DNA of 64,000 bases from an uncultured Fibrobacteria bacterium (GTDB taxonomy: Bacteria; Fibrobacterota; Fibrobacteria; UBA11236): positions 1,088,001-1,152,000 of the forward strand of contig OY970309.1 in NCBI GenBank assembly GCA_963716395.1. Direction: 5' to 3'. The position numbers were made by a program, and so were the translations under genes. Position 1 is the first letter of the stretch; every line of letters begins with the position of its first letter. The notes beneath the pieces were generated by a model. The model did no database searches. It saw only the letters and a list, made by a program, of their open reading frames with translations, and was not told the DNA's origin. Below are positions 21,604 through 41,563 of the stretch, in pieces.

Positions 21604-24600
21604 AAACCATTCCCTTGGACTCCGTCCATAAACCGGAGCGTCGCGGTTCGGATACCGACGCTTCCGCGATATCGGATTTGCAGGAAATAAAGGCCGAAGC
21701 GGCGCGGCGCTTCCAAAGACAGCATGTCCTCGCCGGAAAGCAAGGGTCCGAAACGTTTTTCCGCCAGAACCCGTCCGGAAACATCCAGCATGCGCAAATC
21801 CACGTCGCTCACCATACCGAAAGCCGCGGGCACTTCAAAATCAATCTGCATTTCCGATCCCAAACGGCGCGCCCCTCGCAGGATTCCCGTTTCTCCCGTC
21901 GCTTCTTGTTGCAATTCGGATTCGGTGGCGGCGAACCCTGCGGAGTCGATTTGCACCAACTGAAAAGCATTCCATCCCGCCGCAACCATAACGCCCGAGT
22001 CACCCAGGGGCAACAAGCGGTTTTGCGCCGGCGACCACACGGCCCAATTCGTGATGCTACCGTGGGCTTGCACGGCCACCTTACCGGCTGTGGGCGCTTC
22101 TAGAAAAAAATTCCGGCGCGGTTTCACGGCGGCGCTGAGGGAACCGTTCAGCGAATCCCATACCGCGAAAAACCCGGGGTGGAAAAAAGTCGGCACCGGC
22201 GCGGGTCGGCTGAAATTCCGCAGGCGCAAAATAGCGGTTTGCCCAGTGGATGCGAAGCTCCATTGCACGTCGATTCCGCCTGGCGCCGCGGGCTTGCCCA
22301 AAGGCAACGAAACAAACGGATCAAAAGCGAGCTGCGTAGGCCGGAACGCTTTAACCATGTATCCCTGAAAAGGTTTGAGCGTATCGGCGAGGGACCAAGA
22401 CGGCTTGGCCGAATCCCCATCGCCCGTCCAACTAAGCGCGTAGAAATAGGAAACCGACGACGAATCGAGGCCGATGCGCGCGTCGGCAATGGGAAAAGGC
22501 AAAGGGTCGGCCACGCAATGCCAGCCCGAGTCCAAATTCATCCCGACCGGAAGAGCGGAAAGCCCATCGGTGTCGAGCTTGGGATTCCAGGCGGCAGGCA
22601 ATCCCGCGAGATAACCGCCGGCCGCGGCCAAAGTTGCGGTTTCCGGCAAATTAGACCAGGCCGTTCCATTCCAGCTTTTAAGCACCACGCTGTCGCCGGT
22701 CGACTTGCCCTGCAACACCTCAGACGCCGGCATGTTTTGTGGATAGCCGATCAAGTTCTTGATGAAGGGGCGCAATGCGGGCGCGGCCGCGTTCGCCGCG
22801 GCCGTAAAAGCGGCGGGGTTCAACGGGGCCGGCGTCCAAGTCGCATCCCACGCCACCGTACCTGCAAAGTTACGATACCCCATGCGATACGCCCCCAAAA
22901 CCCCGGTGGGTATGGAAACCGACAAACTCGAATCGAAACCGGCCGAATCGGTGAGGGTCATCACCGTACCGCCCGCATCCACGAATTCCACTTGCGTCAA
23001 CACCGACAAAGTGCGCGCGCTTTCGGAAGAATCGAGCGCGGGGGTGAGGATGAGCTGTCCGCTGGAAACCTGCGCCACGGCGGGTTTCGCGGGATGAATC
23101 GGCACGGTATCAAGCGGTGAAAGGCGCTCGGCCACAACCAGGGCCGTTACGGCGGGCACAAGCGCCAGGCGATAGCGGTTTCCAATTTGCGCCACCGAGT
23201 CCAAAACCCAGGATCCGCCGGCGTTACGGGTATACGCGACCAAGCGCGCAGGGTGCACGGGTGCGAGACCGGCGACGAATACGGTATAAGCCTGGGTCGG
23301 CGTCAAATGCGTCAAAACCACGCCGCGCACCGCCAGAAAGCGCAAAGTATCTTGGACGAGACCCGTAACCTGATAGGTACTATCGAGGGCGAAATCGCCG
23401 GGCGTCGACGACAGCAGACCCGTCACCGAATCGGGACCCAGCGCGAATGAATTCGTTTGTCCCGCGGCCAGGGAAAACTTGCGCGCCAAAAAGAAAACCA
23501 TGCCGCTGTCGGCAAGCGCCAATGCCGATGCAACCGACGCCGTGTCTTCGTTCATGACGGCCGCAGCGGCCGTCTGTGTTCCGTTTTTCACAAACAGCGA
23601 TTGGCCCGCATTGGTTTTGCGGAACACCGCGACCAAGGTGTCGCCCGCGGCGCGGCCGGGCCACTTGAATGAAAACGGTTTGGAGAAATACCCCTGGCTC
23701 GGGAAAGCCGTAGTGTCGAGCTGCGAGGCGGAACTGTCGATGGAGAGTTGATGGCCTGCAGCCGTGGCGGAATACAAATGATTGCCCGCAAAAGCCACGG
23801 TATCGCGCCCGCTACCCACGGCCAGCCGCTCGACCAGTGCCGCCGAGAACGACGAAGCGAAAGGCGATTTCCACCACCAAAAGCCGGACGAGTCAAAGGC
23901 GGGGACGAAACTCGCGTTGCCAATCCTAAAAAAAAGCGAGTCGGGCCAAATCGGCGCGCCGGCTCCGGCTTTGGTCAGGCCAAGCTTTAGAGTACCAGAC
24001 CCTTCGGCATTGGTGGCGAAAGCCGCGCCATAGGGTTCGCCGTTACGGGCGATGGGGCGCAGGCGTTTTTGCGGCGGCAGTGAATCCCTCGCGCGGGCCA
24101 GGGTTCGCCCCGCGCGCGTGACCGAATCAAAGCGCACCGTGGTGTCGGTTCCGAGTCCGGTGACCGAAACGTTACTGCCGCGAAACGTGTTCTGCCCCGC
24201 AAAGGCGGGAATGAAGGTGTTGGCCAAAGTGGCGTTTACGAAAATCGAACCACTTTCGACGCCTTCGCTTTGGGCCACGAAGGCGGAGCCCGCCTGCGCG
24301 AACAGCAGCGGCCTGCCTTCACTGCGGGCCGGGAGCGAAATCGAATTCACCCGCGCCGACCCGTTCAAAACCAAGGTCGTGTCTTTCTCAAACCACGATC
24401 GCACCGAATCGGGAAGCGCCGTGGCATAAACCGCCGCGCCTAGCGACGCGGTCAGAACGCGGGGGAAGACGGAGGCCGCCACAGTGAACACCGCATTCCC
24501 CGTGGGTAGCGCAAAAGTTACTGTACTGTCCGGCGGAAAAAGATTGAAGACGGGCAATGGGTTCGGGCCATTCCAGGCGCCATGCGAATTATCGCCTGGG

Positions 24601-25801
24601 ATTTGCCAATCCCAGGCGACGGTCGAGTCTTTCGACGGGGAAACAACAGTATTACTGGAGTCGGAGAACATGGATTGCCCTAAAGAACTTGTGAAGCCAT
24701 TCCAACTGGAATACCGCACATTGTTGCTGACGGAATCCGGTGTTATAAATCTGGTTACTAGGATAATGTTTTTCTGTGACCCATCTTGGGTAATGTTATT
24801 CTGCGCGGGTGGATTTGCAAAATAATTGTTTTGAATATTGCAGGTCGCGCTTAAATTACCGTCTAATAAAAACTGCGTTTTATTCACCGTATTGTATTTC
24901 ATGTCAAGGCGGTTGGTTGCCGATGCACTCAACACCCCGGAGAAGTTAAAAAGATTGTTAGAAAGCGTGATGGTACTATCGGCGGGCAGCGACAGCGCCC
25001 CGGTCGCTGAAAACATCGAATTCGCAATGCTGATGCTGCCAGCCCCCGTCAGCGACAGCGCCCCGGTCGCTGAAAACATCGAATTCGCAATGCTGATGCT
25101 GCCGCCCCCGTCAGCGACAGCGACCCGGTCGCTGAAAACATCGAATTCGCAATGCTGATGCTGCTAGCCCCCGTCAGCGACAGCGACCCGGTCGCTGAAA
25201 ACATCGAATTCGCAATGCTGATGCTGCTCGCGCCCGTCAGCGACAGCGAACCCGTCGCTGAAAACATCGAATTCGCAATGCTGATGCTGCTCGCGCCCGT
25301 CAGCGACAGCGAACCCGTCGCTGAAAACATCGAATTCGCAATGCTGATGCTGCTCGCGCCGTCGCCTCCCCAGGCGAAAACCTTGCGGCTGTTCTGCCCA
25401 TCGCCCAATACCGTGCAACTGTCGAATGTGAGGTTGTGGTTGTTAATCTTACTGGTGTCGAACAAGATTCCGGAACCGTTCAGCTTAATCGCAAGATTTC
25501 GAAAAATCACGATGCCAGCTTGATTATCCAAATGCGCCAGAACACCACTCACCTGCACCGCCGAATCGGCTTGCGAAGCCCGCTCGAAATACAACGTGTC
25601 GCTGCCATTGCCGCTTAAGGTAAGACTGCCCGGGTTTTGGTAGCCCAATCCTGCGAAACGAATGTGGGTTGTGCCCGTGTTCGGCACGGTGATATTGTCG
25701 AGGCGCGTTGTGCCGTCGATGGTGAACACGGCGGCAGGCGACAAAAACGGTGCGAACGCAATCAGCGCCGAAGTCAAAGCGAAAATTGGGTGCCGGTTCA
25801 C
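21600..25801 (-). CDS. Large (~1400 aa) secreted surface protein with 21-aa repeats and T9SS-like C-terminal domain; 1-bp frameshift at ~25103
   Basis: ORFs 25049..25801 (signal peptide) and 21600..25079 join across one 62-bp unit among 63-bp units; tail LRMLDVSGRVL..GLYFLQI. Confidence 0.75.
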
Positions 25802-26044
25802 AACTCAAAAGGTAGCAACAAGCTTTTTACCCGATTCAATTCGCACAGCCGGTTCAAGCGGCCACAAGGGGCCGGACGCCGCCTTTCTGAAAAACCGAGG
25901 ACATTGTCTGAGTTCGGAAATCCGCCTTCGCCGAAGGGGTCGGGTCGCTCCGGGCGAGTTCCGCAGGCCGGCAAGAAAGGCGACGATCTCCGTGGTCAAT
26001 TTGCGCTCGCGAAAAAATGGTGAAGATCATTTCAACTTCAATGT
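24106..26044. repeat. Segmental direct repeat, copy 1 (partner 27609-29359)
   Basis: Near-identical sequence with offsets of 3315 and 3503 bp; the 188-bp difference equals three 63-bp units minus 1 bp. Confidence 0.92.
24987..25360. repeat. Coding tandem repeat, 6 x 63 bp (SISIANSMFSATGxLSLTGAx)
   Basis: GCTGAAAACATCGAATTCGCAATGCTGATGCTG at 25006, 25069, 25131, 25194, 25257 and 25320. Confidence 0.95.
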
Positions 26045-26626
26045 ATCCGTCTTTTCTGCATAGTCATCTCCGCTCAGATATTTCAAAATCAAGGCATCCT
26101 TTGTGAAGCTCGCCTCTTCAACCGCAAATCGTACGGCGGCAATTTTTTTTGAAAAACGCGGAGTGAACGAACGTGAAGGACTGGAGCAAGGGAAAATGCA
26201 TTCAACGTGAACCGTGTCGGCTGTCAAATATGCGATTGACATTGTTTCCGTATCTTCTGCAAGGATGTCCGGAAAAAATTCCGATTTCTTGGAATCGGAC
26301 AATCGATAAAAAAAGGTCATGTCGCATGGACTGCCGCAACTCCCGGTAATTTTCATGACGTCCGAGGTGAAATGATTAATGGCGGTGTTTTCTGGCATCT
26401 CTTCGATGAATTTAGGGCGCCGACCCGCTTGTGCGACGAATACGGAACACCCTTGAGCCGTACACCGAAGATTCATAGGACTTTTTGAAATGGAATATTC
26501 GGAATAAGCTCCGCTTTTAGGTGCGACATTCGGATCACCATTTTTGTAACTGAATCCGACAATTGTAATCGCAGCAAGTGCCGCGAATACAACGTCAACT
26601 TTTATATCGATAAAATTTAAAATCAT
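26027..26626 (-). CDS. Putative exported immunity protein of the adjacent cell-wall hydrolase
   Basis: Overlaps the hydrolase stop; N-terminal hydrophobic segment; paired Cys (CTAQGC, CGSPC, CIFPC); AT-rich. Confidence 0.55.
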   Translation of the reverse strand: MILNFIDIKVDVVFAALAAITIVGFSYKNGDPNVAPKSGAYSEYSISKSPMNLRCTAQGCSVFVAQAGRRPKFIEEMPENTAINHFTSDVMKITGSCGSPCDMTFFYRLSDSKKSEFFPDILAEDTETMSIAYLTADTVHVECIFPCSSPSRSFTPRFSKKIAAVRFAVEEASFTKDALILKYLSGDDYAEKTDTLKLK

Positions 26627-27182
26627 CTGTTTGAAGTAAATTCGGAATTTCGACTTCTTCTACTTTTTGATTCACAAAATCAGGCTCTTTCCGATATTTT
26701 TTCGGATCCATCAAATGCCATTTCGCTTGTGCTTTGGGGCTATAATAAAGCTGGCACCCTTGAGTTAAATCCGGATCATTTTTGTCGTAAACAAGTTTTA
26801 TAACGGGTATGAATTTTTCAATGCTCCTGTCTTTTTCGATTGACTCATTTTTCAAATAATCGAAGCATTTAACATAGGGCGCATTGCGTTGATCATGCGC
26901 GTCAAACCCACCGCCGTTGATCAAATCCAGAACATTTTTATACCGCGTCCACTCCCTTTTCCCCACCCGGTTCATGATTACATGCGCAATCGCGCGCCAA
27001 GCAACGGGGCTTTGCGCGGCCGCTTCGCCGTAAATCGTTGACGCGAACACGATGAACTCTTCGGAATAATCTGTTTTCTTTGCGCTTTCATCAATCAACC
27101 GAATCGAATATTTCCGTCCCGTGCGGAGATAGAGGCCCTTTTGAAGTTCCGCAGCGGTTGCCTCGATTATTTCGTCGTCCAT
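26595..27182 (-). CDS. Cell wall hydrolase (Hydrolase_2/SleB-like lytic transglycosylase), putative toxin
   Basis: ASTIYGEA...AIAHVIMNRV, DLTQG..LYYSP and FKFY motifs; no signal peptide; RBS AAGGA. Confidence 0.78.
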   Translation of the reverse strand: MDDEIIEATAAELQKGLYLRTGRKYSIRLIDESAKKTDYSEEFIVFASTIYGEAAAQSPVAWRAIAHVIMNRVGKREWTRYKNVLDLINGGGFDAHDQRNAPYVKCFDYLKNESIEKDRSIEKFIPVIKLVYDKNDPDLTQGCQLYYSPKAQAKWHLMDPKKYRKEPDFVNQKVEEVEIPNLLQTDDFKFYRYKS

Positions 27183-27199: not shown

Positions 27200-29116
27200 T
27201 CAACGTTGCACAGACGGCAGCATTTTCCCGTCGGCCCGGTACGCGCCCTTGGGACCGACGATGGAGTAAGGCGGAAACTCGCGCAATTTAATCGCCGCCA
27301 TGCGCCTGGGCAAAACCGCCTGGGATCCCGACGGTACCGCAAACACAATATTGGCATTTTGAGAGAACGGCAAGACAACGCTCAGGTTGTTCAGCGCCGC
27401 TTTGACGGGAAGCATTTTCGATGCGTTCCAATAGGCGACAATACTGTCTTTGGCCAAGGCTGCCGTGTCAACCCCGACGTAGAAGATGCAGCGCACCGAA
27501 TCCTGGCCTTCGACATCGGTCGCGATATCATACGCTATCGGTTGGCCGCTCAAAAGCAGGGGAACATATCCGGTCGGCAGTTGCGTATTCGGTGAATGGA
27601 ACACGGTGCGCCCCGCGCGCGTGACCGAATCAAAGCGCACCGTGGTATCGGTTCCGAGTCCGGTAACCTGAACGTTACTGCCCCGGAAAGTATTCTGGCC
27701 TGCGAAAGCGGGAATGAACCCGGTCGCCGAAGAACCGTTTACGAAAACCGAACCGCCTTCGACACCGACGCTTTGGGCCACGAAGGTCGAACCCACCTGC
27801 GCGAACAGCAGAGGCTTGCCTTCATTGCGGGCCGGAAGCGAAATCGAATTCACCCGCGCCGACCCGTTCAAAACCAAGGTCGTGTCTTTTTCAAACCAAG
27901 GCCGCACCGAATCGGAAAGCGCCGTGGCATAAGCCGCCGCGCCCAGCGACGCGGTCAGAACGCGGGGAAAGACGGAGGCCGCCACCGTGAACACCGCATT
28001 CCCCGTGGGTAGCGCAAAAGTTACTGTACTGTCCGGCGGAAAAAGATTGAAGACGGGCAATGGGTTCGGGCCATTCCAGGCGCCATGCGAATTGTCGCCT
28101 GGGATTTGCCAATCCCAGGCGACGGTCGAGTCTTTCGACGGGGAAACAACAGTATTACTGGAGTCGGAGAACATGGATTGCCCTAAAGAACTTGTGAAGC
28201 CATTCCAACTGGAATACCGCACATTGTTGCTGACGGAATCCGGTGTTATAAATCTGGTTACTAGGATAATGTTTTTCTGTGACCCATCTTGGGTAATGTT
28301 ATTCTGCGCGGGTGGATTTGCAAAATAATTGTTTTGAATATTGCAGGTCGCGCTTAAATTACCGTCTAATAAAAACTGCGTTTTATTCACCGTATTGTAT
28401 TTCATGTCAAGGCGGTTGGTTGCCGATGCACTCAACACCCCGGAGAAGTTAAAAAGATTGTTAGAAAGCGTGATGGTACTATCGGCGGGCAGCGACAGCG
28501 CCCCGGTCGCTGAAAACATCGAATTCGCAATGCTGATGCTGCCAGCCCCCGTCAGCGACAGCGCCCCGGTCGCTGAAAACATCGAATTCGCAATGCTGAT
28601 GCTGCCAGCCCCCGTCAGCGACAGCGCCCCGGTCGCTGAAAACATCGAATTCGCAATGCTGATGCTGCTCGCGCCATCGCCGCCCCAGGCGAAAACCTTG
28701 CCCGTGTTTGCGTGTCGCCGAGAACCGTGCAACTGTCGAACAGGAGGTTGTGGTTAAAACTCAAGGGTTGAATCAAACATCGCGCCGCCGGTATTCAGCT
28801 TGAACGCCAAGCCACGAAAGACGACCGTCCCTTTCTGACCTTGCAGATGGAGCAGAACCCCACTCACCGCCACTGCCGAATCGGTTTGCGAAGCCCGCTC
28901 GAAGATGAGGCTGTCGCTGCCGTTGCCGCTTACGGTAAGACTGCCCGGGTTTTGGTAGCCCAATCCTGCGAAACGAATGTGGGTTGTGCCCGTGTTCGGC
29001 ACGGTGATATTGTCGAGGCGCGTTGTGCCGTCGATGGTGAACACGGCGGCAGGCGACAAAAACGGTGCGAACGCAATCAGCGCCGAAGTCAAAGCGAAAA
29101 TTGGGTGCCGGTTCAC
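27200..29116 (-). CDS. Short paralog (~640 aa) of the 21600-25801 surface protein; compensating indels near 28700-28760
   Basis: Identical N-terminus MNRHPIFALTS; shifted frame reads FNHNLLFDSCTVLGD like the paralog; unique C-terminus ending YRADGK. Confidence 0.7.
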
Positions 29117-29570: not shown

Positions 29571-29667
29571 ATTTCGAAGCCCCCTCGGTAGATTTCAATA
29601 TATCGAGTATGACCGGAAAATCCGCATCTTCGCGTGTTTGCATCAAGGTGATGATGGCCTGGGCCAA
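29571..29667 (-). pseudogene. Cassette 8: truncated constant segment (LAQAIITL..STEGASK), no tip
   Basis: Constant block breaks off after GASK and is joined to the unrelated immunity remnant. Confidence 0.8.
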
Positions 29668-29669
29668 AC

Positions 29670-30440
29670 CTATTGCAGCAACTTTTCCACGGTTTTGGCG
29701 TCGGCCTGTGCGTTGTGGACTCGCAGGCCATTCTTGAAGATTTCTTGCTCCACCCTATAACGCTTTAACGTGCTATCCGGCTCAGCGCTGAAAGTCCACA
29801 ATTCACCGGTTCCATTTATCACTTTTCCAGTTGCTTTTCCGGTCGGGGAAAATGATTCGGAAAAAATTAGGCGCTGGTTCCCTTTACTCGGATCTTCTTC
29901 GCGGGTCGCCTGTTCTTTCAGACGCAAATTACCGTTGGGAAAATACTCTTCGTCCGAAATAATTAACCCTTTATGGCATTGCGCCACCAATTTCTTATTG
30001 CCATTGGGCCACCATTCCTGCCATAAGCCCTCTTCTTGGCCGGAGTCGTTGTAGTTTTTGATTAAAGATGGGTGGCCGGGGGAATAGTAATTTTCATCCT
30101 TGCCGATTTGGATTCCGTTTCGATGTTCCCTGCGTCCAACAATATTACCAAGGGAATCCCAGAACAATGAAACCCCATTTTCTTTTCCATTGATATAAAA
30201 ACTGCTGTCTTTCTTTCTCCAAAGACTATCATAGTCAACTTGGAAACCATTCTGAGTCCCATTTTTATACTCAAGGGCGGAAATTATATTTTCCGATTTA
30301 TAATCGCAGTCTTACTCGAAGCTCCACCGTACCATATTTTCGTTTTTGAATTTCTTTTTCTCCACAAGTATAAGAGGGGTGCGCCAAAGGCTTCCGAATC
30401 AGAAATAGACAGCCAAACCTGAGATTTTAATTTTCGATTT
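29670..30440 (-). CDS. MORN-variant/YwqK-like partner 7 (B-type C-terminus; 5' part frameshifted, start uncertain)
   Basis: YTCGEK..YGTVELRV..; constant block YSPGHPSLIKNYNDSGQEEGLWQEWWPNG; ends VEKLLQ. Confidence 0.75.
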
Positions 30441-30780
30441 TATTCTCTTGAAGGATAATGTGGAATTGATCGAGAAACGGGTAGTTTGCCTTTTGCTGAT
30501 TATGATTTTCATCGAAAAACCCCTTCCCTAATCCAAAGTCATCGATCCTCTGTTTCCCCGCCTTCAGCGCATCCGCTTTTTGTTTTACAGCCACCGGATC
30601 TTCATCACCCGATCCGGGTGGCGGCAAAGGCAATTGCGACACAAAGCGCAACACCCATTTGAGAATGTGATTGCCGTTCGGTGATTTCGAAGCCCCCTCG
30701 GTAGATTTCAATATATCGAGTATGACCGGAAAATCCGCATCTTCGCGTGTTTGCATCAAGGTGATGATGGCCTGGGCCAA
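30427..30780 (-). other. Cassette 7: effector C-terminal module, tip GKQRIDDFGLGKGFFDENHNQQKANYPFLDQFHIILQENKIEN
   Basis: Constant 75 aa near-identical to the effector sub-terminus, followed by a variable tip. Confidence 0.85.
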
Positions 30781-30782
30781 AC

Positions 30783-31564
30783 CTATTGCAGCAACTTTTC
30801 CACGGTTTGTGAGTCGGCCTCCTGATTGCTCACTTCGAAGCCGTCTTTATAAATTTCGTGCAAGACGCGATAGTTTATGCGTGACGCTGTCCGGCTTGGC
30901 ATCGAATAGCCACGTATTCTCCTGTTCCATTCACCACCCTGCCGGTAGATTTTCCGGCGGGTGAAAAAGTTTCATAGAAAACCACCTTCGCGTCTCCCTT
31001 TGATGGGCTTCGCGCTGATACGCTGTTTTTTCCTTTAATCGCAAAATTCCGTTTGGAAAGTATTCTTCATCCTCAATCACTTCACCCTTTATGACATTGC
31101 GCCACCAATTTCTTATTGCCATTGGGCCACCATTCCTGCCATAAGCCCTCTTCTTGGCCGGAGTCGTTGTAGTTTTTGATTAAAGATGGGTGGCCGGGGG
31201 AATAGTAATTTTCATCCTTGCCGATTTGGATTCCGTTTCGAAACTTCCGCTTTCCCACTACTTCGCCTAGCGTATCCCAAAAAATCAAGGTTCCATTTTT
31301 TCTACCGTTAACAAAAAAACAACTGTCGTGTTTGCGCCATAAACTATCATAATGAATGGCAATACCATTTTGAATGCCTCCTTTATATTCCAAAACCGAA
31401 ATAATGTTATCCGCTAAATAGTCACAACGAACCCGAAGCTCCACTTGGCCGTATGGCCTGCTTAAGGTCTCTTTCTGTCCGCAGGTATAGGGAGTTTGCT
31501 TTGCAGAAGTAAGGGCAATGGGGATAAGCATTGCCGCCCAGATTAATCGACTATTTAATCCCAT
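30783..31564 (-). CDS. MORN-variant/YwqK-like partner 6 (A-type C-terminus; frameshifted)
   Basis: Signal peptide MGLNSRLIWAAML; YTCG..VELRVRC; overlaps tip 6. Confidence 0.78.
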
Positions 31565-31901
31565 TCTCTTTGAGTAGAGTGTGTAATTGATCCAAAAAAC
31601 CGTCATTTGCATCCGGCTCTTTATTGTTCTCATCGAAATACCCCTTCCCCAATCCGAACCTTTTAATCCGCTCTATCCCCGCCTTCAGCGCATCCGCTTT
31701 TTGTTTTACAGACACCGGATCTTCATCACCCGATCCGGGTGGCGGCAAAGGCAATTGCGACACAAAGCGCAACACCCATTTGAGAATGTGATTGCCGTTC
31801 GGTGATTTCGAAGCCCCCTCGGTAGATTTCAATATATCGAGTATGACCGGAAAATCCGCATCTTCGCGTGTTTGCATCAAGGTGATGATGGCCTGAGCCA
31901 A
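31551..31901 (-). other. Cassette 6: effector C-terminal module, tip GIERIKRFGLGKGYFDENNKEPDANDGFLDQLHTLLKENGIK
   Basis: Constant segment plus variable tip. Confidence 0.85.
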
Positions 31902-31903
31902 AT

Positions 31904-32661
31904 CTATTGCAGCAACTTTTCCACGGTTTTGGCGTCGGCCTGTGCGTTGTGGACTCGCAGGCCATTCTTGAAGATTTCTTGCTCCACCCTATAACGCTTT
32001 AACGTGCTATCCGGCTCAGCGCTGAAAGTCCACAATTCACCGGTTCCATTTATCACCTTTCCAGTTGCTTTTCCGGTCGGGGAAAATGATTCGGAAAAAA
32101 TTAGGCGCTGGTTCCCTTTACTCGGATCTTCTTCGCGGGTCGCCTGTTCTTTCTTAGACGCAAATTACCGTTGGGAAAATACTCTTCGTCCGAAATAATT
32201 AACCCTTTATGGCATTGCGCCACCAATTTCTTATTGCCATTGGGCCACCATTCCTGCCATAAGCCCTCTTCTTGGCCGGAGTCGTTGTAGTTTTTGATTA
32301 AAGATGGGTGGCCGGGGGAGTAAAAGGATTCGGACTCTCCATTTAGTTTTCCGTTACTATAATTCTTTCGAGAAATGATATTTCCAAGAGTGTCCCATAT
32401 TAAACACTGGCCCTCTTTTTTACCATCAATAAAAAAGACACTATCATGTATTCTCCATTTTTTATCATAGCTTAACAGCATCCCGTTCCTAATTTTTCCT
32501 TTATATTCAGAAACAAAATTAAAATTTTTAGATAATCCGCAATCAACTCTTAATTCGATTTCACCATTAGTGGTTTTGTGCTTTTCAATTTGTCCACATT
32601 CATAAGCGCATACGAAACAAGGGAAAACAAATATCCCAAAAAAGGAAACACGAATTACCAT
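31904..32661 (-). CDS. MORN-variant/YwqK-like partner 5 (B-type C-terminus; frameshift ~32150)
   Basis: Signal peptide; YECG..IELRVDC; MORN-like repeats. Confidence 0.78.
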
Positions 32662-33014
32662 AAGCTATCCAAATTATTTTGGGCCAGTAAGGCTCTAAAC
32701 GCGATTAAAAAATCTGCATTCGCTTCTTGTGGGTCTCCATTTTCATCAACAAATCCAACTGCATTGCCAAAATCCTGAATCCGCTCTATCCCCGCCTTCA
32801 GCGCATCCGCTTTTTGTTTTACAGACACCGGATCTTCATCACCCGATCCGGGTGGCGGCAAAGGCAATTGCGACACAAAGCGCAACACCCATTTGAGAAT
32901 GTGATTGCCGTTCGGTGATTTCGAAGCCCCCTCGGTAGATTTCAATATATCAAGTATGACCGGAAAATCCGCATCTTCGCGTGTTTGCATCAAGGTGATG
33001 ATGGCCTGGGCCAA
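32655..33014 (-). other. Cassette 5: effector C-terminal module, tip GIERIQDFGNAVGFVDENGDPQEANADFLIAFRALLAQNNLDSLW
   Basis: Constant segment plus variable tip. Confidence 0.85.
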
Positions 33015-33016
33015 AC

Positions 33017-33794
33017 CTATTGCAGCAACTTTTCCACGGTTTGTGAGTCGGCCTCCTGATTGCTCACTTCGAAGCCGTCTTTATAAACTTCGTGCAAGAC
33101 GCGATGTTTGTGCGTGACGCTGTCCGGCTTGGCATCGAATAGCCACGTTTCTCCTGTTCCATTCACCACCCTGCCGGTAGATTTTCCCGCGGGTGAAAAA
33201 GTTTCATAGAAAACCACCTTCGCGTCTTCCTTTGAGGGCTTCGGCTGATACGCTGTTTTTTCCTTTAATCGCAAAACTCCGTTTGGAAAGTATTCTTCAT
33301 CCTCAATCACTTCACCTTTATGACATTGCGCCACCAATTTCTTATTGCCGTTGGGCCACCATTCCTGCCATACAGCCCTCTTCCTGACCCGAGTCGTTGT
33401 AGTTTTTGATTAAAGATGGGTGGCCGGGGGAATAGTAATTTTCATCCTTGCCGATTTGGATTCCGTTTCGATGTTCCCTGCGTCCAACAATATTACCAAG
33501 GGAATCCCAGAACAATGAAACCCCATTTTCTTTTCCATTGATATAAAAACTGCTGTCTTTCTTTCTCCAAAGACTATCATAGTCAACTTGGAAACCATTC
33601 TGAACTTCTCCTTTATACTCTAAAACTGAAATTACGTCGTATTCTTTTTTACCGGAACAGTCGACTTCTAATTCCACTTTCCCATAACGTCGCTTGAAAA
33701 TTTTTTTCTCTCCGCAAGTATAAGAAGATGGTTTACATTGCCCAAAACTGAGGAAAACAAATAAAATCAAAATTAGTCGATTACTGAATCCCAT
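33017..33794 (-). CDS. MORN-variant/YwqK-like partner 4 (A-type C-terminus; frameshift ~33372)
   Basis: MGFSNRLILILFVFLSFGQC signal peptide; YTCG..VELEVDC. Confidence 0.78.
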
Positions 33795-34131
33795 TTTCTT
33801 CGAGCAAATTATGGAATTGGTGCAAAAACCCAGCGTTCCGGTTTTGTTTTCTTCTGTTTTCATCAAAGTACCCTTCACCCTCGCCAAAATCATTAATCCG
33901 TTTAATCCCCGCCTTCAGCGCATCCGTTTTTTGTTTTACAGACACCGGATCTTCATCACCCGATCCGGGTGGCGGCAAAGGCAATTGCGACACAAAGCGC
34001 AACACCCATTTGAGAATGTGATTGCCGTTCGGTGATTTCGAAGCCCCCTCGGTAGATTTCAATATATCGAGTATGACCGGAAAATCCGCATCTTCGCGTG
34101 TTTGCATCAAGGTGATGATGGCTTGGGCCAA
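33781..34131 (-). other. Cassette 4: effector C-terminal module, tip GIKRINDFGEGEGYFDENRRKQNRNAGFLHQFHNLLEENGIQ
   Basis: Constant segment plus variable tip. Confidence 0.85.
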
Positions 34132-34133
34132 AT

Positions 34134-34921
34134 CTATTGCAGCAACTTTTCCACGGTTTTGGCGTCGGCCTGTGCGTTGTGGACTTCGCAGGCCATTCTT
34201 GAAGATTTCTTGCTCCACCCTATAACGCTTTAACGTGCTATCCGGCTCAGCGCTGAAAGTCCACAATTCACCGGTTCCATTTATCACCTTTCCAGTTGCT
34301 TTTCCGGTCGGGGAAAATGATTCGGAAAAAATTAGGCGCTTGCGTTCCCTTTACTCGGATCTTCTTCGCGGGTCGCCTGTTCTTTCTAGACGCAAAATTA
34401 CCGTTGGGAAAATACTCTTCGTCCGAAATAATTAACCCTTTATGACATTGCGCCACCAATTTCTTATTGCCATTGGGCCACCATTCCTGCCATAAGCCCT
34501 CTTCTTGGCCGGAGTCGTTGTAGTTTTTGATTAAAGATGGGTGGCCGGGGGAATAGTAATTTTCATCCTTGCCGATTTGGATTCCGTTTCGATGATTCCC
34601 TGCGTCCAACAATATTACCAAGGGAATCCCAGAACAATGAAACCCCATTTTCTTTTCCATTGATATAAAAACTGCTGTCTTTCTTTCTCCAAAGACTATC
34701 ATAGTGAACTTGGAATACCATTCTGAACTTCTCCTTTATATTCTAAAACTGAAATTACGTCGTATTCGTTTTTTAGCCGGAACAGTCGACTTCTAATTCC
34801 ACTTTCCCATAACGTCGCTTGAAAATTTTTTTCTCTCCGCAAGTATAAGAAGATGGTTTACATTGCCCAAAACAATGAGGAAAACAAATAAAATCAAAAT
34901 TAGTCGATTACTGAATCCCAT
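34134..34921 (-). CDS. MORN-variant/YwqK-like partner 3 (N-half as partner 4, B-type C-terminus; several indels)
   Basis: 5' half near-identical to the 5' half of partner 4; 3' half matches B-type. Confidence 0.72.
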
Positions 34922-35259
34922 TTTCTTCGAGCAAATTATGGAATTGGTGCAAAAAACCCAGCGTTCCGGTTTTGTTTTCTTCTGTTTTCATCAAAGTACC
35001 CTTCACCCTCGCCAAAATCATTAATCCGTTTAATCCCCGCCTTCAGCGCATCCGCTTTTTGTTTTACAGACACCGGATCTTCATCACCCGATCCGGGTGG
35101 CGGCAAAGGCAATTGCGACACAAAGCGCAACACCCATTTGAGAATGTGATTGCCGTTCGGAGATTTCGAAGCCCCCTCGGTAGATTTCAATATATCGAGT
35201 ATGACCGGAAAATCCGCATCTTCGCGTGTTTGCATCAAGGTGATGATGGCTTGGGCCAA
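34908..35259 (-). other. Cassette 3: effector C-terminal module, same tip as cassette 4 (homopolymer indel)
   Basis: DNA near-identical to 33781-34131; extended A-run at ~34951. Confidence 0.8.
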
Positions 35260-35261
35260 AT

Positions 35262-36054
35262 CTATTGCAGCAACTTTTCCACGGTTTTGGCGTCGGCCTC
35301 CTGCATTGCTCGACTTCGAAGCCGTCTTTATAAACTTCGTGCAAGACGCGATAACGCTTTATGCGTGAAGCTGTCCGGCTTGGCACTCGAATAGCCACGT
35401 TTCTCCTGTTCCATTCACCACCTTGCCGGTAGATTTTCCGGTCGGGTGAAAAAGTTTCATAGAAAACCAGGCGCTTCGCGTCTTCCTTTGACTCGGGTCT
35501 TCGTCGCTGATACGCCTGTTTTTTCCTTTAGATCGCAAAACTACCGTTTGGAAAGTATTCTTCATCCTCAATCACTTCACCCTTTATGACATTGCGCCAC
35601 CAATTTCTTATTGCCATTGGGCCACCATTCCTGCCATAAGCCCTCTTCTTGGCCCGAGTCGTTGTAATGTGATTAATGTGCTCGGCTTATTGGGGGCGTA
35701 AAATGTTGTGCGAACTCCGACGGGATATCCATTTACATAATGGGTTTTTTCAACAATATTTCCAAGTGAATCCCAGACTAAACAATTTCCGTTCTTTTTC
35801 CCCTCCACATAGAAGCAACTATCGTGTTTTATCCATCGGACAGGCCCTGAATTTGTTTTGTTAAAGCTCATGGATATCCCGCTTCGCCGGCCATTTTGAT
35901 ATTCGGATACGAATTTCGTATTCGTGTCGAGTTTACAGTTCACACGTAATTCAACTGTTCCATATGGTTTTGAATATGTTGCCCTGGTACCGCATTCATA
36001 TTCATCCGAAAAACAGATTTGAAAAAGAAGAGCGATAATCAGCAACCTGATCAT
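35262..36054 (-). CDS. MORN-variant/YwqK-like partner 2 (most divergent N-half; 3' half A/B chimeric with indels)
   Basis: MIRLLIIALLFQICFS signal peptide; YECG..VELRVNC; ATGA overlap with tip 2. Confidence 0.72.
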
Positions 36055-36404
36055 AAACCACTCAAACCATTTTTTTGCATGAGGTCAGCAAAATCTGATA
36101 AAAAGTCCTCGTCTTTATCTCGATATTTATCTGTTGGTTTAAGATTTTTTGCGAGCCCGTAATTATTTAACAACTGTTTCCCCGCCTTCAGCGCATCCGC
36201 TTTTTGTTTTACGGCCACCGGATCTTCATCACCCGATCCGGGTGGCGGCAAAGGCAATTGCGACACAAAGCGCAACACCCATTTGAGAATGTGATTGCCG
36301 TTCGGTGATTTCGAAGCCCCCTCGGTAGATTTCAATATATCGAGTATGACCGGAAAATCCGCATCTTCGCGTGTTTGCATCAAGGTGATGATGGCCTGGG
36401 CCAA
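36051..36404 (-). other. Cassette 2: effector C-terminal module, tip GKQLLNNYGLAKNLKPTDKYRDKDEDFLSDFADLMQKNGLSGL
   Basis: Constant segment plus the most divergent tip. Confidence 0.85.
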
Positions 36405-36406
36405 AC

Positions 36407-37177
36407 CTATTGCAGCAACTTTTCCACGGTTTGTGAGTCGGCCTCCTGATTGCTCACTTCGAAGCCGTCTTTATAAACTTCGTGCAAGACGCGATGTTTG
36501 TGCGTGACGCTGTCCGGCTTGGCATCGAATAGCCACGTTTCTCCTGTTCCATTCACCACCCTGCCGGTAGATTTTCCCGCGGGTGAAAAAGTTTCATAGA
36601 AAACCACCTTCGCGTCTTCCTTTGAGGGCTTCGGCTGATACGCTGTTTTTTCCTTTAATCGCAAAACTCCGTTTGGAAAGTATTCTTCGTCCTCAATCAC
36701 TTCACCTTTATGACATTGCGCCACCAATTTCTTATTGCCATTGGGCCACCATTCCTGCCATAAGCCCTCTTCTTGGCCGGAGTCGTTGTAGTTTTTGATT
36801 AAAGATGGGTGGCCGGGGGAATAGTAGAATTCTTTCTTCCCAATCTGTACTCCCATACGATGATTTTCGCGGCCAACGAGGTTGCCGAGCGTATCCCAAT
36901 AAAGACATTCGCCGTTTTCTTTTCCGTCCACAAAAAAACTGCTGTCTTTTTTGCGCCAAAGACTATCGTAATGTATTGCAATGCCATTTTGATTATCGTT
37001 TTTAAATTCTAATACGGATATATTGTTGTCTGTTTTATCAGACAAAAAGCTACAATCGACTTGCAGTTTTACTAGGCCGTAGGGTTTTTTAACAGTATTC
37101 GATTCGCCACATGAAAATGGGTTACCAGTATTCGCGTTTATCATGGATGCTGCGATTAAATAAAACAGAAATTTCAT
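36407..37177 (-). CDS. MORN-variant/YwqK-like partner 1 (intact, 256 aa, A-type C-terminus)
   Basis: Signal peptide; FSCG..VKLQVDC; repeats G..NG....Y/W...G; ATGA overlap with tip 1. Confidence 0.85.
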   Translation of the reverse strand: MKFLFYLIAASMINANTGNPFSCGESNTVKKPYGLVKLQVDCSFLSDKTDNNISVLEFKNDNQNGIAIHYDSLWRKKDSSFFVDGKENGECLYWDTLGNLVGRENHRMGVQIGKKEFYYSPGHPSLIKNYNDSGQEEGLWQEWWPNGNKKLVAQCHKGEVIEDEEYFPNGVLRLKEKTAYQPKPSKEDAKVVFYETFSPAGKSTGRVVNGTGETWLFDAKPDSVTHKHRVLHEVYKDGFEVSNQEADSQTVEKLLQ

Positions 37178-37524
37178 TTTATCGAATTTGTTTCTAAAAG
37201 TATGTGAATGTGCGCCAGAAAAACGTCGTTTCGTTTCGCCGGATCCCCTCTTTCGTCTACATATCCTTCACCTTTCCCGAACTTTTCAATCCGCTCTATC
37301 CCCGCCTTCAGCGCATCCGCTTTTTGTTTTACAGACACCGGATCTTCATCACCCGATCCGGGTGGCGGCAAAGGCAATTGCGACACAAAGCGCAACACCC
37401 ATTTGAGAATGTGATTGCCGTTCGGAGATTTCGAAGCCCCCTCGGTAGATTTCAATATATCGAGTATGACCGGAAAATCCGCATCTTCGCGTGTTTGCAT
37501 CAAGGTGATGATGGCCTGGGCCAA
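37174..37524 (-). other. Cassette 1: effector C-terminal module, tip GIERIEKFGKGEGYVDERGDPAKRNDVFLAHIHILLETNSIK
   Basis: Constant segment plus variable tip. Confidence 0.85.
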
Positions 37525-37526
37525 AT

Positions 37527-38344
37527 CTATTGCAGCAACTTTTCCACGGTTTTGGCGTCGGCCTGTGCGTTGCTGCACTCGCAGGCCATTCTTGAAGATT
37601 TCTTGCTCGACGCTATAACGCTTTATGCGTGAGCTATCCGGCTCAGCGCTGAAAGTCCACAATTCACCGGTTCCATTTATCACTTTTCCAGTTGATTTTC
37701 CGGTCGGGGAAAATGATTCGGAAAAAATTAGGCGCTTCGCGTCTCCCTTTGACTCGGATCTTCTTCGCGGGTACGCCTGTTCTTTCCTTTAGATCGCAAA
37801 TTACCGTTTGGAAAATATTCTTCGTCCGAAATAACTTAACCCTTTATGGCATTGCGCCACCAATTTCTTATTGCCATTGGGCCACCATTCCTGCCATAAG
37901 CCCTCTTCTTGACCCGAGTCGTTGTAGTTTTTGATTAAAGATGGGTGGCCGGGGGAATAGTAATTCTTCACTCCTTGCCGATTTGGATTCCGTTTCGATA
38001 ATTCCCTTTCCGCACGATACTTGACCCAAGCGTATCCCAGAACAATCAAATTCCATTTTTTTTACCGTTAAGATAAAAACTGCTGTCGTTTTTTTAGTCG
38101 CGCTATAAGACTATCATAGTGAACTGGCAATACCATTTTGAATCCGCCTTTGATATTCGAAAACCGAAATTATGTTATCCTCTAATTAGTCTGCAATCGA
38201 CGCGAAGCTCCACTTCGCCATAGGAACGTGCTTGAACTTTTTCTTTTTCTCCGCAAGTATAAGTTTGCATGTGCAGATAGTTTGAGATGACTAACACAGG
38301 AAAAACATAAAGCCTTAGATTAATCGAGCTATCTTAATCCCATT
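37527..38344 (-). CDS. MORN-variant/YwqK-like partner 0, cognate to the full-length effector (many indels, likely consensus errors)
   Basis: Homologous blocks YTCGEK, VELRVDC, YSPGHPSL..WWPNG and VEKLLQ are recoverable across frames. Confidence 0.65.
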
Positions 38345-40997
38345 CTCTTTGAGTAGATTATGAAATTCGGATACAAAAAACCGGCATTTGCAGTCCTGCT
38401 CTTTATTGTTCTCATCGAACATTTACCCCTTCGCCCGCTCCAAATTCTTAATCCGCTTTATCCCCGCCTTCAGCGCATCCGCTTTTTGTTTTACAGACAC
38501 CGGATCTTCATCACCCGATCCGGGTGGCGGCAAAGGCAATTGCGACACAAAGCGCAACACCCATTTGAGAATGTGATTGCCGTTCGGTGATTTCGAAGCC
38601 CCCTCGGTAGATTTCAATATATCGAGTATGACCGGAAAATCCGCATCTTCGCGTGTTTGCATCAAGGTGATGATGGCCTGGGCCAAACCTTCGGGAGGAA
38701 CACTTTTATAAATGGTTTGGCGCAGAGGAGCGCCCACAATTTGCTCTTTCACGATGGCTAAATCATGCAGATTTTCCGACAGCCAGTGTTTAAAATTGCT
38801 CACCCGATTGATGGCATAATCGGCGCCCATGGCTAGGGTTATTTTCCGATTCCGCGACTAAGGCGAAGCTATAGTTCTTGTACGCCGTGAAGGCGTCGTC
38901 GATTTCCTTCACATAATGAGAATCGACGGAGTACAGCAAATGCCCTAAAAATTCGCAGCCTTGCTTGGCGTCGACTTCCCAGGTCAAACCGCTGCCGCCG
39001 CCCAAACCCCAAGCCAGGCTCCAGGCAAAATGAAAACGAAACCGCCCGGCACTATAACTCACATGAAAGGATAAGTCGGCCGCAGCGCCGGCCGTGCCTT
39101 TCAGTTCGCCTTCGATCTCGGCCAAATCCGCAAATTCTTGGTGCGCGTCCGGACTCCATTGCGCCGAGAAGGTTATGCCGGCCGTGCCTTGCACGCCGGC
39201 CACCGCATGCACATCGGCTTTGGCCGAAGTTTCACTTTTGGACTTCGATTCCTGGTTGTCGGATTTCTTGTCCTGGCTCAAATCCACGGCCGGAAAGGAA
39301 ATGCAGCCGTTGGCCGATAGGCCCACGAACAATCCGGCTTTGCCGTCTATGCAGATCCGCACCAGGCATTGACCGTTGTTCTCGCGGCAAGAATTTTGGG
39401 CTTTGGGATTGCACAAAGTGGGCAGCAAATCCAATCCTTCGCGCTGGGGCAGAAAAATCTTGCCTGAAAGTTTGCCCTCAAACAAGGCGAAAGACGCGTC
39501 GCCCGAAGCCTGCAAGGAAATTTTTTTGTCTTTGAGATCAAATTCCGCTTTTCCGCTATAACCCAGGGCATAACGCCCGAGGGCCGCTTCGGGGGTGAAC
39601 TGAAACACATCGTTAGGGTTGGTTTTTTGATCCGACTTTCGCGGCCATTTCCAGACGCCGCCGACGACAGGTTCGCTTTCAAACAACTTGGCCTTCAGTT
39701 TCCCTTTCCATAGGGATTTGTCCTCCCCGTCACTTTTATTTCGCTTCAGCAATTTGTCCAGGCGCTTCTGCAAGGATTGATCCGAGGCCTTGACCCATTT
39801 CCCGGGAATTTTGCGGCCGTCTTGGCGCCAAGCCGCAGGCACGTGCACGAAATCCGTCGGCTGGCCCCAACGCGGGTTTTTCTGCACGGTCAACAATTCA
39901 TCCAAACCTTTTTCGACATCGCCGCCGGGCTTGCCTTCGAACAGTGCTTCCCATTCTTTCCGCACCTTTTCCAATTCCTGGGTGCGCGCTTTGGAATCGC
40001 TTTGCTTCCAGGCCTCGGCGGTTTTGCCCCGCAAAGCCTGGGATTTGTTCACATGGGTCGAAAAGGCATTGAAGTCCTCCTGCACTTCCAACATCAGGTA
40101 TTCTTCATTCCGCGGACTATAAAAAATGCAGCCATCAAAATCATCCTCGGTGATTTTCAACCCCCCGCTCTTCACTTCGAGCTTGGGCGAGGATTTTTTG
40201 GCCTTGAAGTAGAACGCATCGCCCGGCTTCAGCGGACCCATGCGCGTTTTTTCCGGCACACACCATTTGGCCACGGCGGCATGGTCGTTGCGTTTTTTCC
40301 CCACGGTTCCGGAATAGGTATTCACCATTTCATCCGATCCGCTTTGGCCTTTGCGGAATAGTTCGAAATGAATGAGATCGCCGGGCATGAGCCCGTCGGT
40401 ATCGACTTTGAAATGCACGATGTCGCCGATGGCGGCTTCGGTGAGAATGCTTTCTGAACTGCCGGGCTTGGTATCGTCTTCGATGTAAGCAAAACCCGGG
40501 TTCAAAAGCGCCGGTTCCGCCTCTTGGCTTTGCGCCGCCGCTGCATCCGCATCCTCGGACTTTTTCCTTTTAGGGTTGGCGCGGGCCAAGGCGCGCGTAT
40601 AGGCCCAATACAGGGCGTGCACGGCATGGTCGAGATGCGAGCCGGGAGCGACCACCAGCCACGATTCCCGGTGGTGCGGAATTTCGTGGGCGAGAAGGTG
40701 AAGGGGAGAATCTTCGGGGCGGCGCGGATATCCCGTGACGCGGGGAGGTCCGGTGCGGTACAACTCTTCCAACTCGTTGCGGTTCAACCTTTGCAAAACC
40801 CTTTCGAGGTCCAGCTGCGTCTGGTTTTTCAGCCAGGCCGGGCATTCCTTCGGCAGCCTGGGACAGGGGCCGAGGTAGTGAAATCCCCGTATGCGCGGGC
40901 TGCCCCCCAGGTAACGGCAAGGTTTCCAGGGGCAATCTTTACAGCAAGGCGCCGGGTAGGGCAAAGCTTCGGAAGGTACGGAAGCGGTTTCAGGCAT
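38330..40997 (-). CDS. Large (~890 aa) putative secreted effector/polymorphic toxin with swappable C-terminal tip; frameshift ~38845 and indels in tip
   Basis: ORF 38790..40997 joins ORF 38423..38830 by one frameshift; Cys-rich N-terminus, Ig-like segment, Gly/Ala-rich beta region, then the constant LAQAIITL..KAG block. Confidence 0.7.
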
Positions 40998-41139: not shown

Positions 41140-41331
41140 TCACACGGCCTGCTCCACCTTGTCTTCCTGGGTCAAGTCGGCCGCGAAAAGCTCATCATCG
41201 GGATTCACCTTTTTCGGGTGACGGCTGACCAGACGGATATTTGCAGGGTAGGCGGACAATTCTTTGGCCAGCGGCGAACCGATGGAGCCACCGGCCCCCA
41301 GAATGGTTTGTCTTGCTTGCGTTTGCGCCAT
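41140..41331 (-). pseudogene. Truncated NAD-dependent epimerase/dehydratase (N-terminal Rossmann fragment)
   Basis: QTILGAGGSIG..LA.EL......RLVSR.PKKVN..DEL..ADL; stops after 63 aa with no continuation visible. Confidence 0.75.
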
Positions 41332-41563
41332 GTTCGCGCCTTTCTTGCCTAGGGTTGGATAAAAACAAACAAAGGATCGGCCGTTGGATCCATCGATGAT
41401 TTCATTTCGATTTCGGTGCACACGGAAATCCAGATCCGAAAATTCCCGCTTTTAGAGCGCCGGAAAGCGATGAATTTCCACAAACCCTTCCCTTCGCGGG
41501 CTAAAGGGTGGAAAATGATACTTGTCCCGGAACCCGCCGTTCGTGTGACCCAAAGGGGAGAAC

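Follow-up and report, generated by a model that had tools for sequence, protein, structure and literature searches.

We analysed a stretch of 64,000 nucleotides (nt) from an uncultured Fibrobacteria bacterium (assembly GCA_963716395.1, contig OY970309.1, positions 1,088,001 to 1,152,000), hereafter called the window. Coordinates are positions in this window unless a contig or another locus is named, and the effector, partner and cassette genes described here all lie on the minus strand. At 29571-40997, a large gene for a putative effector is followed by a partner gene and then by a tandem array of cassettes, each of which repeats the end of the effector gene with a different C-terminal tip and carries a partner gene of its own. 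In our judgement, this is probably an auxiliary effector-immunity locus of a type VI secretion system (T6SS), one that has the layout of a polymorphic toxin with orphan modules and whose cassettes would recombine into the expressed position. Judging from the cassette sequences, the exchanged unit is the tip together with the first ~118 codons of the partner gene, and it is bounded by a constant block (constant block 2) inside that gene.

A 32-nt anchor taken from the constant end of the effector gene (constant block 1) was searched with at most 4 substitutions and occurred 9 times in the window: once in the main gene, seven times in full cassettes and once in a truncated stub. The array units were spaced 1113-1162 nt apart. 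A repeat finder independently returned a 300-nt family of 8 copies with the same spacing. This agrees with an earlier interpretation made from the letters alone (hereafter the sequence-only reading), which had counted 8 cassettes, 7 of them complete, at a period of ~1.12 kb. In the following, the complete cassettes downstream are numbered W1-W7, and W0 stands for the tip-partner pair joined to the main gene. In every cassette, constant block 1 leads into a variable tip of ~42 codons, and the partner gene, which codes for a signal peptide, overlaps that tip. The length of constant block 1 is 222 nt; it codes for the last 74 constant residues of the effector, is 97-100% identical among the copies and corresponds to the near-identical block of ~225 bp reported before. 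The overlap of tip and partner gene amounts to ATGA in W1, for example, and to 14 nt in both W4 and W6. As for a start codon, the orphan effector stubs offer TTG at best. In addition, the G+C content of the array is 35-50%, against 59.8% for the genome.

To compare the units, 12 type-A units (8 from the window and 4 from a second locus of the same type) were aligned and read in 30-column windows. The mean pairwise identity was 97-100% over the first ~210 columns and 34-58% over the next ~450 columns, which comprise the tip and the partner front, and it was back up to 95-99% over a stretch of ~100 nt in the middle of the partner gene. Because identity rises again inside the partner gene, a constant block borders the variable segment on either side and not on one side only. 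The second of them, constant block 2, has ~117 nt, is 95-99% identical and lies in the middle of every partner gene. After it, the 3′ part of the partner gene falls into two allele classes (a and b), which are ~59% alike between classes and 92-100% within them. The sequence-only reading had described constant block 1, but it overlooked the second block and the two allele classes. Furthermore, ~55 codons just before constant block 1 in the main gene (38684-38905) are strongly divergent from the second type-A locus (L001), the two main genes being otherwise 99% identical. Therefore, constant block 1 has variable sequence on both sides in the main genes.

The variable units were diverse, with 11 distinct ones among the 12 type-A cassettes. 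Distances between tips tracked distances between partner fronts (Mantel r = 0.80, reached by 0 of 5000 permutations), and they did not track distances between partner 3′ parts (r = -0.06). Meanwhile, W3 and W4 have a common variable unit and differ in their 3′ classes. W7 is 100% identical to W3 and W4 from alignment column 660 on and 54-72% identical before it, the switch lying within the partner front. In addition, pristine 3′ parts are 99-100% identical between loci that are 740 kb apart. Together, these mosaics and the distance correlations indicate that the parts were shuffled by recombination and that the tip plus the partner front is the inherited unit.

The tip consists of ~42 residues on an effector body that is otherwise constant (97-100%). 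At identities of only 25-35%, a C-terminal pattern K-x-x-A-L-x-x-G-I-x-x-L-x-x-F-G is found throughout the family; it is followed by ~15 unconserved residues and then by an amphipathic end, F-x-x-x-x-x-L-L-x-x-x-G-I. Since the tip has ~42 residues and a scaffold common to the whole family, it is not a toxin domain; these patterns mark it as a structured tail that carries a hypervariable loop. The sequence-only reading had likewise considered the swapped part too short for a toxin domain, and it was right in this.

The partner protein has an N-terminal hydrophobic leader and two invariant cysteines. Its proposed likeness to MORN/YwqK proteins is suggested by a search of a protein atlas with a language model, in which the nearest clusters were YwqK/MORN_2 (score 0.91, a lead only), and by sub-threshold Pfam matches, the MORN_2 (PF07661) scores being 16.8 bits for W1 and 24.3 bits for a W5 fragment against a cut-off of 29.6. 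The signal peptide and the two conserved cysteines point to a periplasmic location, and from sequence the partner is most likely a periplasmic MORN-like immunity protein of the effector. Moreover, an effector-partner pair with overlapping stop and start is kept in five of the 10 loci of relatives (L003, L012, L013, L017 and L018). This overlapping order is the usual arrangement of effector-immunity pairs. In L016 (10359-10886, minus strand), a 176-amino-acid (aa) protein with a lipoprotein-like leader stands in place of a MORN-type partner, which suggests an alternative type of immunity. A complex prediction for the C-terminal 402 residues of an orthologue and its partner gave scores of 0.00 and 0.11 (mark 0.32) without controls and is uninformative on binding.

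An exhaustive HMMER search with the effector returned 296 cluster representatives at E <= 1e-3, and the conserved core of this family corresponds to residues ~296-835 of the related effector P0002 of the same genome. When eight long homologues were scanned with Pfam, three of them (P0080, P0101 and P0146) proved to be VgrG fusions, in which Phage_GPD with DUF2345, T6SS_Vgr or PAAR lies upstream of the core (one also with PAAR). The remaining five have Amidase_2, PG_binding_1, OmpA or SH3 domains. The orthologue P0015 has OmpA and PG_binding_1. A look-up of the clusters of 10 homologues gave a single name, 'Rhs element Vgr protein', on a VgrG fusion. The host genome (G000) encodes TssC (436 bits) and VgrG (247 bits), neither of which adjoins any of its four loci of this design, and in the relative locus L003 a VgrG gene adjoins the effector homologue (Phage_GPD, E 6.4e-60). 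Because relatives combine this core with VgrG or with peptidoglycan-binding domains in fusion proteins, the main protein is most likely a T6SS effector acting in the periplasm.

Direct searches with the effector itself gave little. Pfam showed no family in the main protein at E <= 1, NCBIfam none for P0002, P0001 or P0005 at E <= 0.1, and a sequence search of the PDB had no matches. Word-indexed protein searches returned 3 proteins each, none of them named. The family NF041559, which is named for pore-forming T6SS effectors of the BTH_I2691/VasX type (available part of PMC13133200), was considered and rejected: there was no NCBIfam match, and the partner is soluble and exported, not embedded in the membrane. 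A proposed MIX motif at the N-terminal RIRGFHYLG was also rejected by eye, as it does not fit the consensus of that motif. The literature covered, with subscription journals and supplements outside it, contained no description of the effector family or of tail-only cassettes, and the available part of PMC3482391 does not mention MORN, YwqK or orphan.

Two AlphaFold models of the effector were examined, with a mean predicted local distance difference test (pLDDT) of 70 and 72. They predict an immunoglobulin (Ig)-like sandwich (residues 160-316), a coiled coil, six strands of ~25 residues and an all-helical C-terminal domain. The top structural match of the Ig-like domain was BtaeB-NTD (9jdh_A; Z 11.5, root-mean-square deviation (rmsd) 3.3, 119 aligned residues), from a T6SS cargo effector of Bacteroides fragilis, and the next unrelated match was to generic Ig folds at Z 9.5. 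Foldseek against the PDB found nothing at E <= 0.001 for either model. The strand region or core had only weak matches to outer-membrane beta-barrels (best Z 8.0 with rmsd 13, which is within the range of models that have no true match). Based on the models and the family comparison, the effector would comprise five parts from the N-terminus to the C-terminus: a module of ~200 aa common to the second effector type of the same genome, an Ig-like domain similar to the loading domain of the Bacteroides T6SS cargo effector, a beta-rich body of six strands, a helical C-terminal domain and the tail of ~42 residues with helix, FG loop and helix. A membrane-inserting or pore-forming mode is possible, but it is a guess from these weak matches.

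The locus of the window is one of four of this design in the genome, two of type A and two of type B. Thus, the array is no isolated repeat, and its design belongs to the family as it occurs in this organism. At the second type-A locus, constant block 1 has 4 copies (C1:383.9-387.2 kb). The type-B effector is 43-46% identical overall to that of type A. The type-B arrays have a longer constant part (~217 residues), tips of 25-32 residues and a related exported partner. Furthermore, the two effector types (P0001 and P0002) are 78-98% identical over residues 1 to ~200 and 20-38% identical over the remainder. A conserved N-terminus on a diverged remainder is a second, higher level of modular exchange. 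These N-terminal ~200 residues also contain a Cys-rich stretch, PAPCCxDCxWKPCRY. A search with the W2 stub protein found no relative outside the host genome, and a search for related loci with P0015 returned its own record only.

Several observations weigh against our interpretation. In the assembly, the reading frame of both type-A main genes is interrupted before the C-terminus. In the window, the gene consists of a 735-aa open reading frame (ORF; 38790-40997) and, after a frame change near 38810-38830, a 135-aa ORF (38423-38830), which stops at a premature TAA within the tip; the single full-length gene of ~890 aa announced by the sequence-only reading was therefore not recovered, although the effector would be about 890 aa long if read through. 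In a tblastn comparison with P0015, an intact orthologue of 871 aa, the main gene of the window has one frame change (+2 to +3) and one internal stop, and its twin at the second type-A locus has two frame changes and one internal stop. Only 2 of the 12 type-A partners (W1 and X1) and 7 of the 12 tips (W1, W2, W4-W7 and X1) are intact. For the window alone, the intact partners are 1 of 8 (W1) and the intact tips 6 of 8, so the earlier description of each cassette as a tip with an overlapping signal-peptide gene is right for the layout and the overlaps but not for their intactness. In addition, no alternative tip was found on the main gene in 13 low-depth contigs, none of which crosses a cassette boundary into unique flanks. 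The comparison with related genomes, which the sequence-only reading had proposed, retrieved the gene pair but no arrays in the same 10 loci, and no MORN partner was found behind the effector in L014, L015 and L016. No homologue was present in 11 genomes of the same genus, which are drafts, 6 of the 11 being under 90% complete. The MORN_2 scores of the partner lie below the Pfam cut-off, and the linkage between the tail and the partner front could arise by adjacency alone. Finally, the mode of action is a guess, because the toxic body has no reliable fold match (best Z 8.0, rmsd 13).

The frame breaks deserve a closer look. A comparison of the type-A main gene bodies over 2137 nt showed 15 substitutions and 0 indels, so the consensus is clean outside the arrays. 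Meanwhile, when the noisy partner 3′ parts (W0, W2, W3, W5 and W6) were compared with pristine copies of the same class, all 37 indel events were insertions and none was a deletion. In W2, 32 bases depart from class b, of which 27 match class a; in W0, 33 bases depart from class a, of which 29 agree with class b. Even the noisiest cassettes show 0 indels in constant blocks 1 and 2. The noise is confined to places where the cassettes are unlike each other, it only ever adds bases, and these are mostly taken from the other template; thus, on the letters of the consensus, most of the frame breaks look like the noise of a mixed-template consensus, not decay. A short-read contig of the X1 run ends at the break in W4 (33375), and its 13 loose letters fit only without the extra base. 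The mixture could come from co-existing strains, from gain or loss of units, from real switching or from reads placed in the wrong register. One further idea, that the variable region of W0 is a merge of two known cassettes, found no support: the best pair covers 84% of its bases, a share that lies within the 73-85% reached for clean cassettes.

A regular pattern is common to all four loci (the window, L001, L010 and L011): the first partner is frame-broken and the second cassette is fully open in both tip and partner. The most far-reaching form of our hypothesis takes this first-cassette noise as the footprint of ongoing switching at the expression site. It holds that the specificity of immunity lies wholly in the ~42-residue tail, that the front half of a modular periplasmic MORN partner recognises this tail, and that present-day populations swap the cassettes, between their two constant blocks, through double crossover or gene conversion. 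We regard this stronger form as doubtful.

The same pattern can also be read as decay. In that case, the effectors and most cassettes would be true pseudogenes. Selection would have spared a few orphan immunity genes, namely those of W1, of X1 and of the second cassette at each type-B locus, as a defence against neighbours that still carry the effectors, with no switching at all. The frame breaks in both type-A main genes and in 10 of the 12 partners, the premature stop in the W0 tip and the broken first partners next to intact second cassettes all fit such a relic, and retention of orphan immunity genes is a known outcome according to the available part of PMC5361080. However, natural decay should also give deletions and should not copy the other allele, and it does not agree with constant blocks that are free of indels or with main gene bodies that differ by substitutions alone. 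Furthermore, the sole frame break reached by a short-read contig, at 33375, is missing from that contig. We therefore consider a decaying relic unlikely.

It is also conceivable that the tail is a functionless passenger. The selected unit would then be the immunity gene, whose product recognises the constant body or another effector, and since the end of the effector gene is the conserved DNA closest to it, crossovers there would have brought the cassettes in. The start codon and leader of the partner overlap the tail, so the tail must travel with the partner in any case; the entire segment, signal peptide included, is about equally diverged; and the type-B tails are shorter (25-32 aa), one type-B main gene even ending after the first tail helix. 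However, the scaffold of the tail is conserved among distant family members, and in the host genome the constant body leaves the diverse partner fronts nothing else to read. In addition, the 3′ part of the partner gene is equally close on the DNA, but it is not co-inherited with the tail. For these reasons, a passenger tail seems improbable to us.

Finally, the array or its unit order might be a chimera of strain haplotypes or a mis-resolved repeat, a concern which the sequence-only reading had itself raised and which the mixed-template signs in the consensus at several cassettes (W0, W2, W3 and W6, where reads of more than one cassette type were merged) touch in part. The genome appears to be a metagenome assembly, and one of the three listed read runs, labelled soil metagenome, contains the stretch (share 0.22), as low-depth contigs; but an artefact is very improbable, as the genome is a single 3.75-Mb contig (completeness 99.21, contamination 0.3), the same design recurs at four separate loci, W1, W4-W7 and X1 each have a clean variable unit found nowhere else, and independent contigs of the X1 run match the array in five different parts, without gaps and with 0-2 mismatched letters, the unit order being outside their reach.

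We thus return to an effector-immunity locus with recombining cassettes and propose the following mechanism. The downstream gene, which is translationally coupled to the effector gene, would encode a Sec-exported, MORN-like periplasmic immunity protein. Each of the seven further cassettes holds the last 74 constant codons of the effector, a different tail and a partner with equally different first ~118 codons. Homologous recombination through the two constant blocks would bring a new tail and the front half of its immunity gene into the expressed position; alternatively, the same recombination would gain or lose units. Such an exchange would alter which immunity protein neutralises the effector and would leave the toxic body unchanged. 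The retained cassettes would also serve as spare immunity genes.

Several known systems resemble this locus. Rhs, CdiA and MafB loci keep orphan C-terminal toxin/immunity modules, which recombine onto the main gene (C-terminal displacement). Here too, a constant body and an immunity gene are followed by repeats with a piece of the body, a variable C-terminus and an immunity gene of their own, and the repeated body piece permits recombination onto the main gene. The sequence-only reading had recognised this polymorphic-effector anatomy, and the constant body, variable C-terminus, stubs and partner genes bear it out. However, neither Rhs/YD repeats (PxxxxDPxGL) nor VENN or DUF1020 were found here by Pfam and NCBIfam. 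Because these defining repeats and motifs are absent, the locus is not a member of the Rhs, CdiA or MafB families. Furthermore, the variable C-terminus is here not a toxin domain but ~42 residues on a common scaffold, and the cassette is closed on its far side by a constant block within the immunity gene, so that the exchange takes in no more of the immunity protein than its front half.

In colicin E DNases, a short variable surface segment (the specificity exosite) on a conserved toxic body decides which Im protein binds. The arrangement proposed here is similar in combining a conserved toxic body with a short variable specificity segment. However, the colicin variants sit on different plasmids with no tandem cassette archive, and their fold and target are unrelated. 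In Neisseria pilE/pilS and Borrelia vlsE, gene conversion from silent cassettes varies a surface antigen to escape host immunity. These systems likewise have one expressed gene with promoterless partial copies, constant flanks on both sides and mosaic cassettes, but they lack a paired second gene. In our locus, the constant flanks and the mosaics are known from the cassette sequences, and no conversion event was seen in the low-depth contigs. YwqK protects against a cytoplasmic LXG toxin. Our partner resembles YwqK in its sub-threshold MORN_2 matches and in being coded directly after a toxin-like gene; unlike YwqK, it has a signal peptide and two conserved cysteines. In Bacteroidales, the immunity genes of acquired interbacterial defence arrays reportedly lie on mobile elements with a recombinase. 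These arrays hold orphan immunity genes against T6SS effectors (available part of bioRxiv 10.1101/471110). Here, in contrast, every immunity gene keeps an effector stub, and the array lies directly behind the effector gene.

A further parallel concerns Vibrio cholerae, whose T6SS clusters acquire arrays of immunity genes through sequential displacement (Kirchberger et al. 2017, available part of PMC5361080). As here, immunity genes of earlier date persist behind the effector now in place and homologous recombination shuffles modules; there, however, whole modules of different families are swapped (same source). In our locus, the body of one family is kept, only the tail and half of the immunity gene vary, and the array is a regular tandem of 1.1 kb. 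Orphan arrays of toxin tips and immunity genes are thus already known from Rhs, CdiA, MafB and the Vibrio T6SS (PMC5361080), and to call the system possibly undescribed, as the sequence-only reading did, was an overstatement. What is new here is the effector family, the small size of the cassette, which comprises only half an immunity gene and a tail of 42 residues, and the presence within the immunity gene of a second recombination block.

The positions of the features are listed in the table below. The type-A loci cease to resemble each other about 50 nt upstream of the start codon. The main gene is directly preceded by a fragment of a short-chain dehydrogenase/reductase (SDR) gene, whose Pfam matches (NAD_binding_10 and Epimerase) are both under the cut-off. 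This fragment runs up to where the main gene starts, which would fit an insertion of the locus at this point. The remainder of the SDR gene was not found below the array by Pfam.

Features of the effector-cassette locus, its neighbours and its counterparts in the same genome (window positions unless a contig or locus is named; CB, constant block)
Feature	Position	Strand	Remarks
Main effector gene, type A	38316..40997	-	frame-broken as assembled; remainder of tip reaches about 38316
CB1, copy 0	38462..38683	-	inside main gene; AQAIITLMQTRED...ADALKAG
CB1 anchors	38683 (in main gene), 37521, 36401, 35256, 34128, 33011, 31898, 30777, 29664	-	
CB1, truncated final copy	29571..29664	-	about 95 nt; end of array
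W0	37522..38461	-	tip and partner both heavily frame-broken as assembled; 3′ part class a with class-b-like inserted bases
W1	36402..37521	-	only fully intact cassette in the window
W1, CB1	37300-37521	-	
W1, tip	37177-37299	-	
W1, partner	36407-37177	-	256 aa; signal peptide; class b
W2	35257..36401	-	tip intact, partner front half open; class b 3′ part with 15 insertion events, mostly class-a-matching
W3	34129..35256	-	variable part as in W4 (tip 99%, partner front 95%); 3′ part class a; several one-base insertions
W4	33012..34128	-	tip intact; partner with one extra base at 33375, unsupported by short-read contig
W5	31899..33011	-	tip intact; single 2-nt insertion in partner 3′ part, class a
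W6	30778..31898	-	tip intact, partner front half open; class b 3′ part with 5 one-base insertions
W7	29665..30777	-	tip intact; one frame break near partner 5′ end; class a 3′ part pristine
CB2, W1 partner	36705..36821	-	...YSPGHPSLIKNYNDSGQEEGLWQEWWPNGNKKLVAQCHKG
CB2, other copies	37841-37957, 34437-34553, 33315-33432, 32204-32320, 31086-31202, 29968-30084	-	
CB2, W2 copy	ends at 35581	-	shorter
SDR fragment	41143..41421	-	93 codons; N-terminal, NAD-binding; directly upstream of main gene
Large-protein neighbours, window	21603-25163, 27200-28732	-	
Large-protein neighbours, other loci	L001 1037-4612; L010 35-2242; L012 710-4477		
Second type-A locus	C1:382.7-389.6 kb		main gene 99% identical, then cassettes X0-X3
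Type-B loci	C1:3.236 Mb and 1.817 Mb		effector P0002, 865 aa

Other genes around these loci were also noted. Just past the array, a 195-aa ORF (26595-27182, minus strand) has a weak match to the cell-wall hydrolase family Hydrolase_2 (22.1 bits, cut-off 27); the ORF after it (26030-26659, minus strand) has 210 aa and no family, and the two may form a further effector/immunity pair. In addition, very large proteins without a Pfam family adjoin the effector loci in the host genome and in one relative; by eye only, they show repeated units and motifs of the type 'SISIANSMFSA'. Past the type-B array of L010 (9934-12487, corresponding to G000:C1:3242933-3245486), there are two family-less genes, one of 295 aa with membrane segments and one of 256 aa, and after them another intact MORN-type partner of 264 aa.

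Independently of any switching, the present study defines an unnamed T6SS effector family with 296 representatives, documented here in Fibrobacteria. The family pairs with a soluble periplasmic MORN-like partner, unlike pore-forming T6SS toxins, whose immunity proteins are membrane-bound (available part of PMC13133200). If our interpretation is true, killing activity and self/non-self specificity would be separated in this family, unlike in classic polymorphic toxins, where they are fused, and a tail of 42 residues together with half an immunity protein would suffice to redefine kin. The locus would then offer a compact model for the evolution of toxin-immunity specificity, and this genome would hold a natural library of at least 11 tail/immunity pairs for binding studies.

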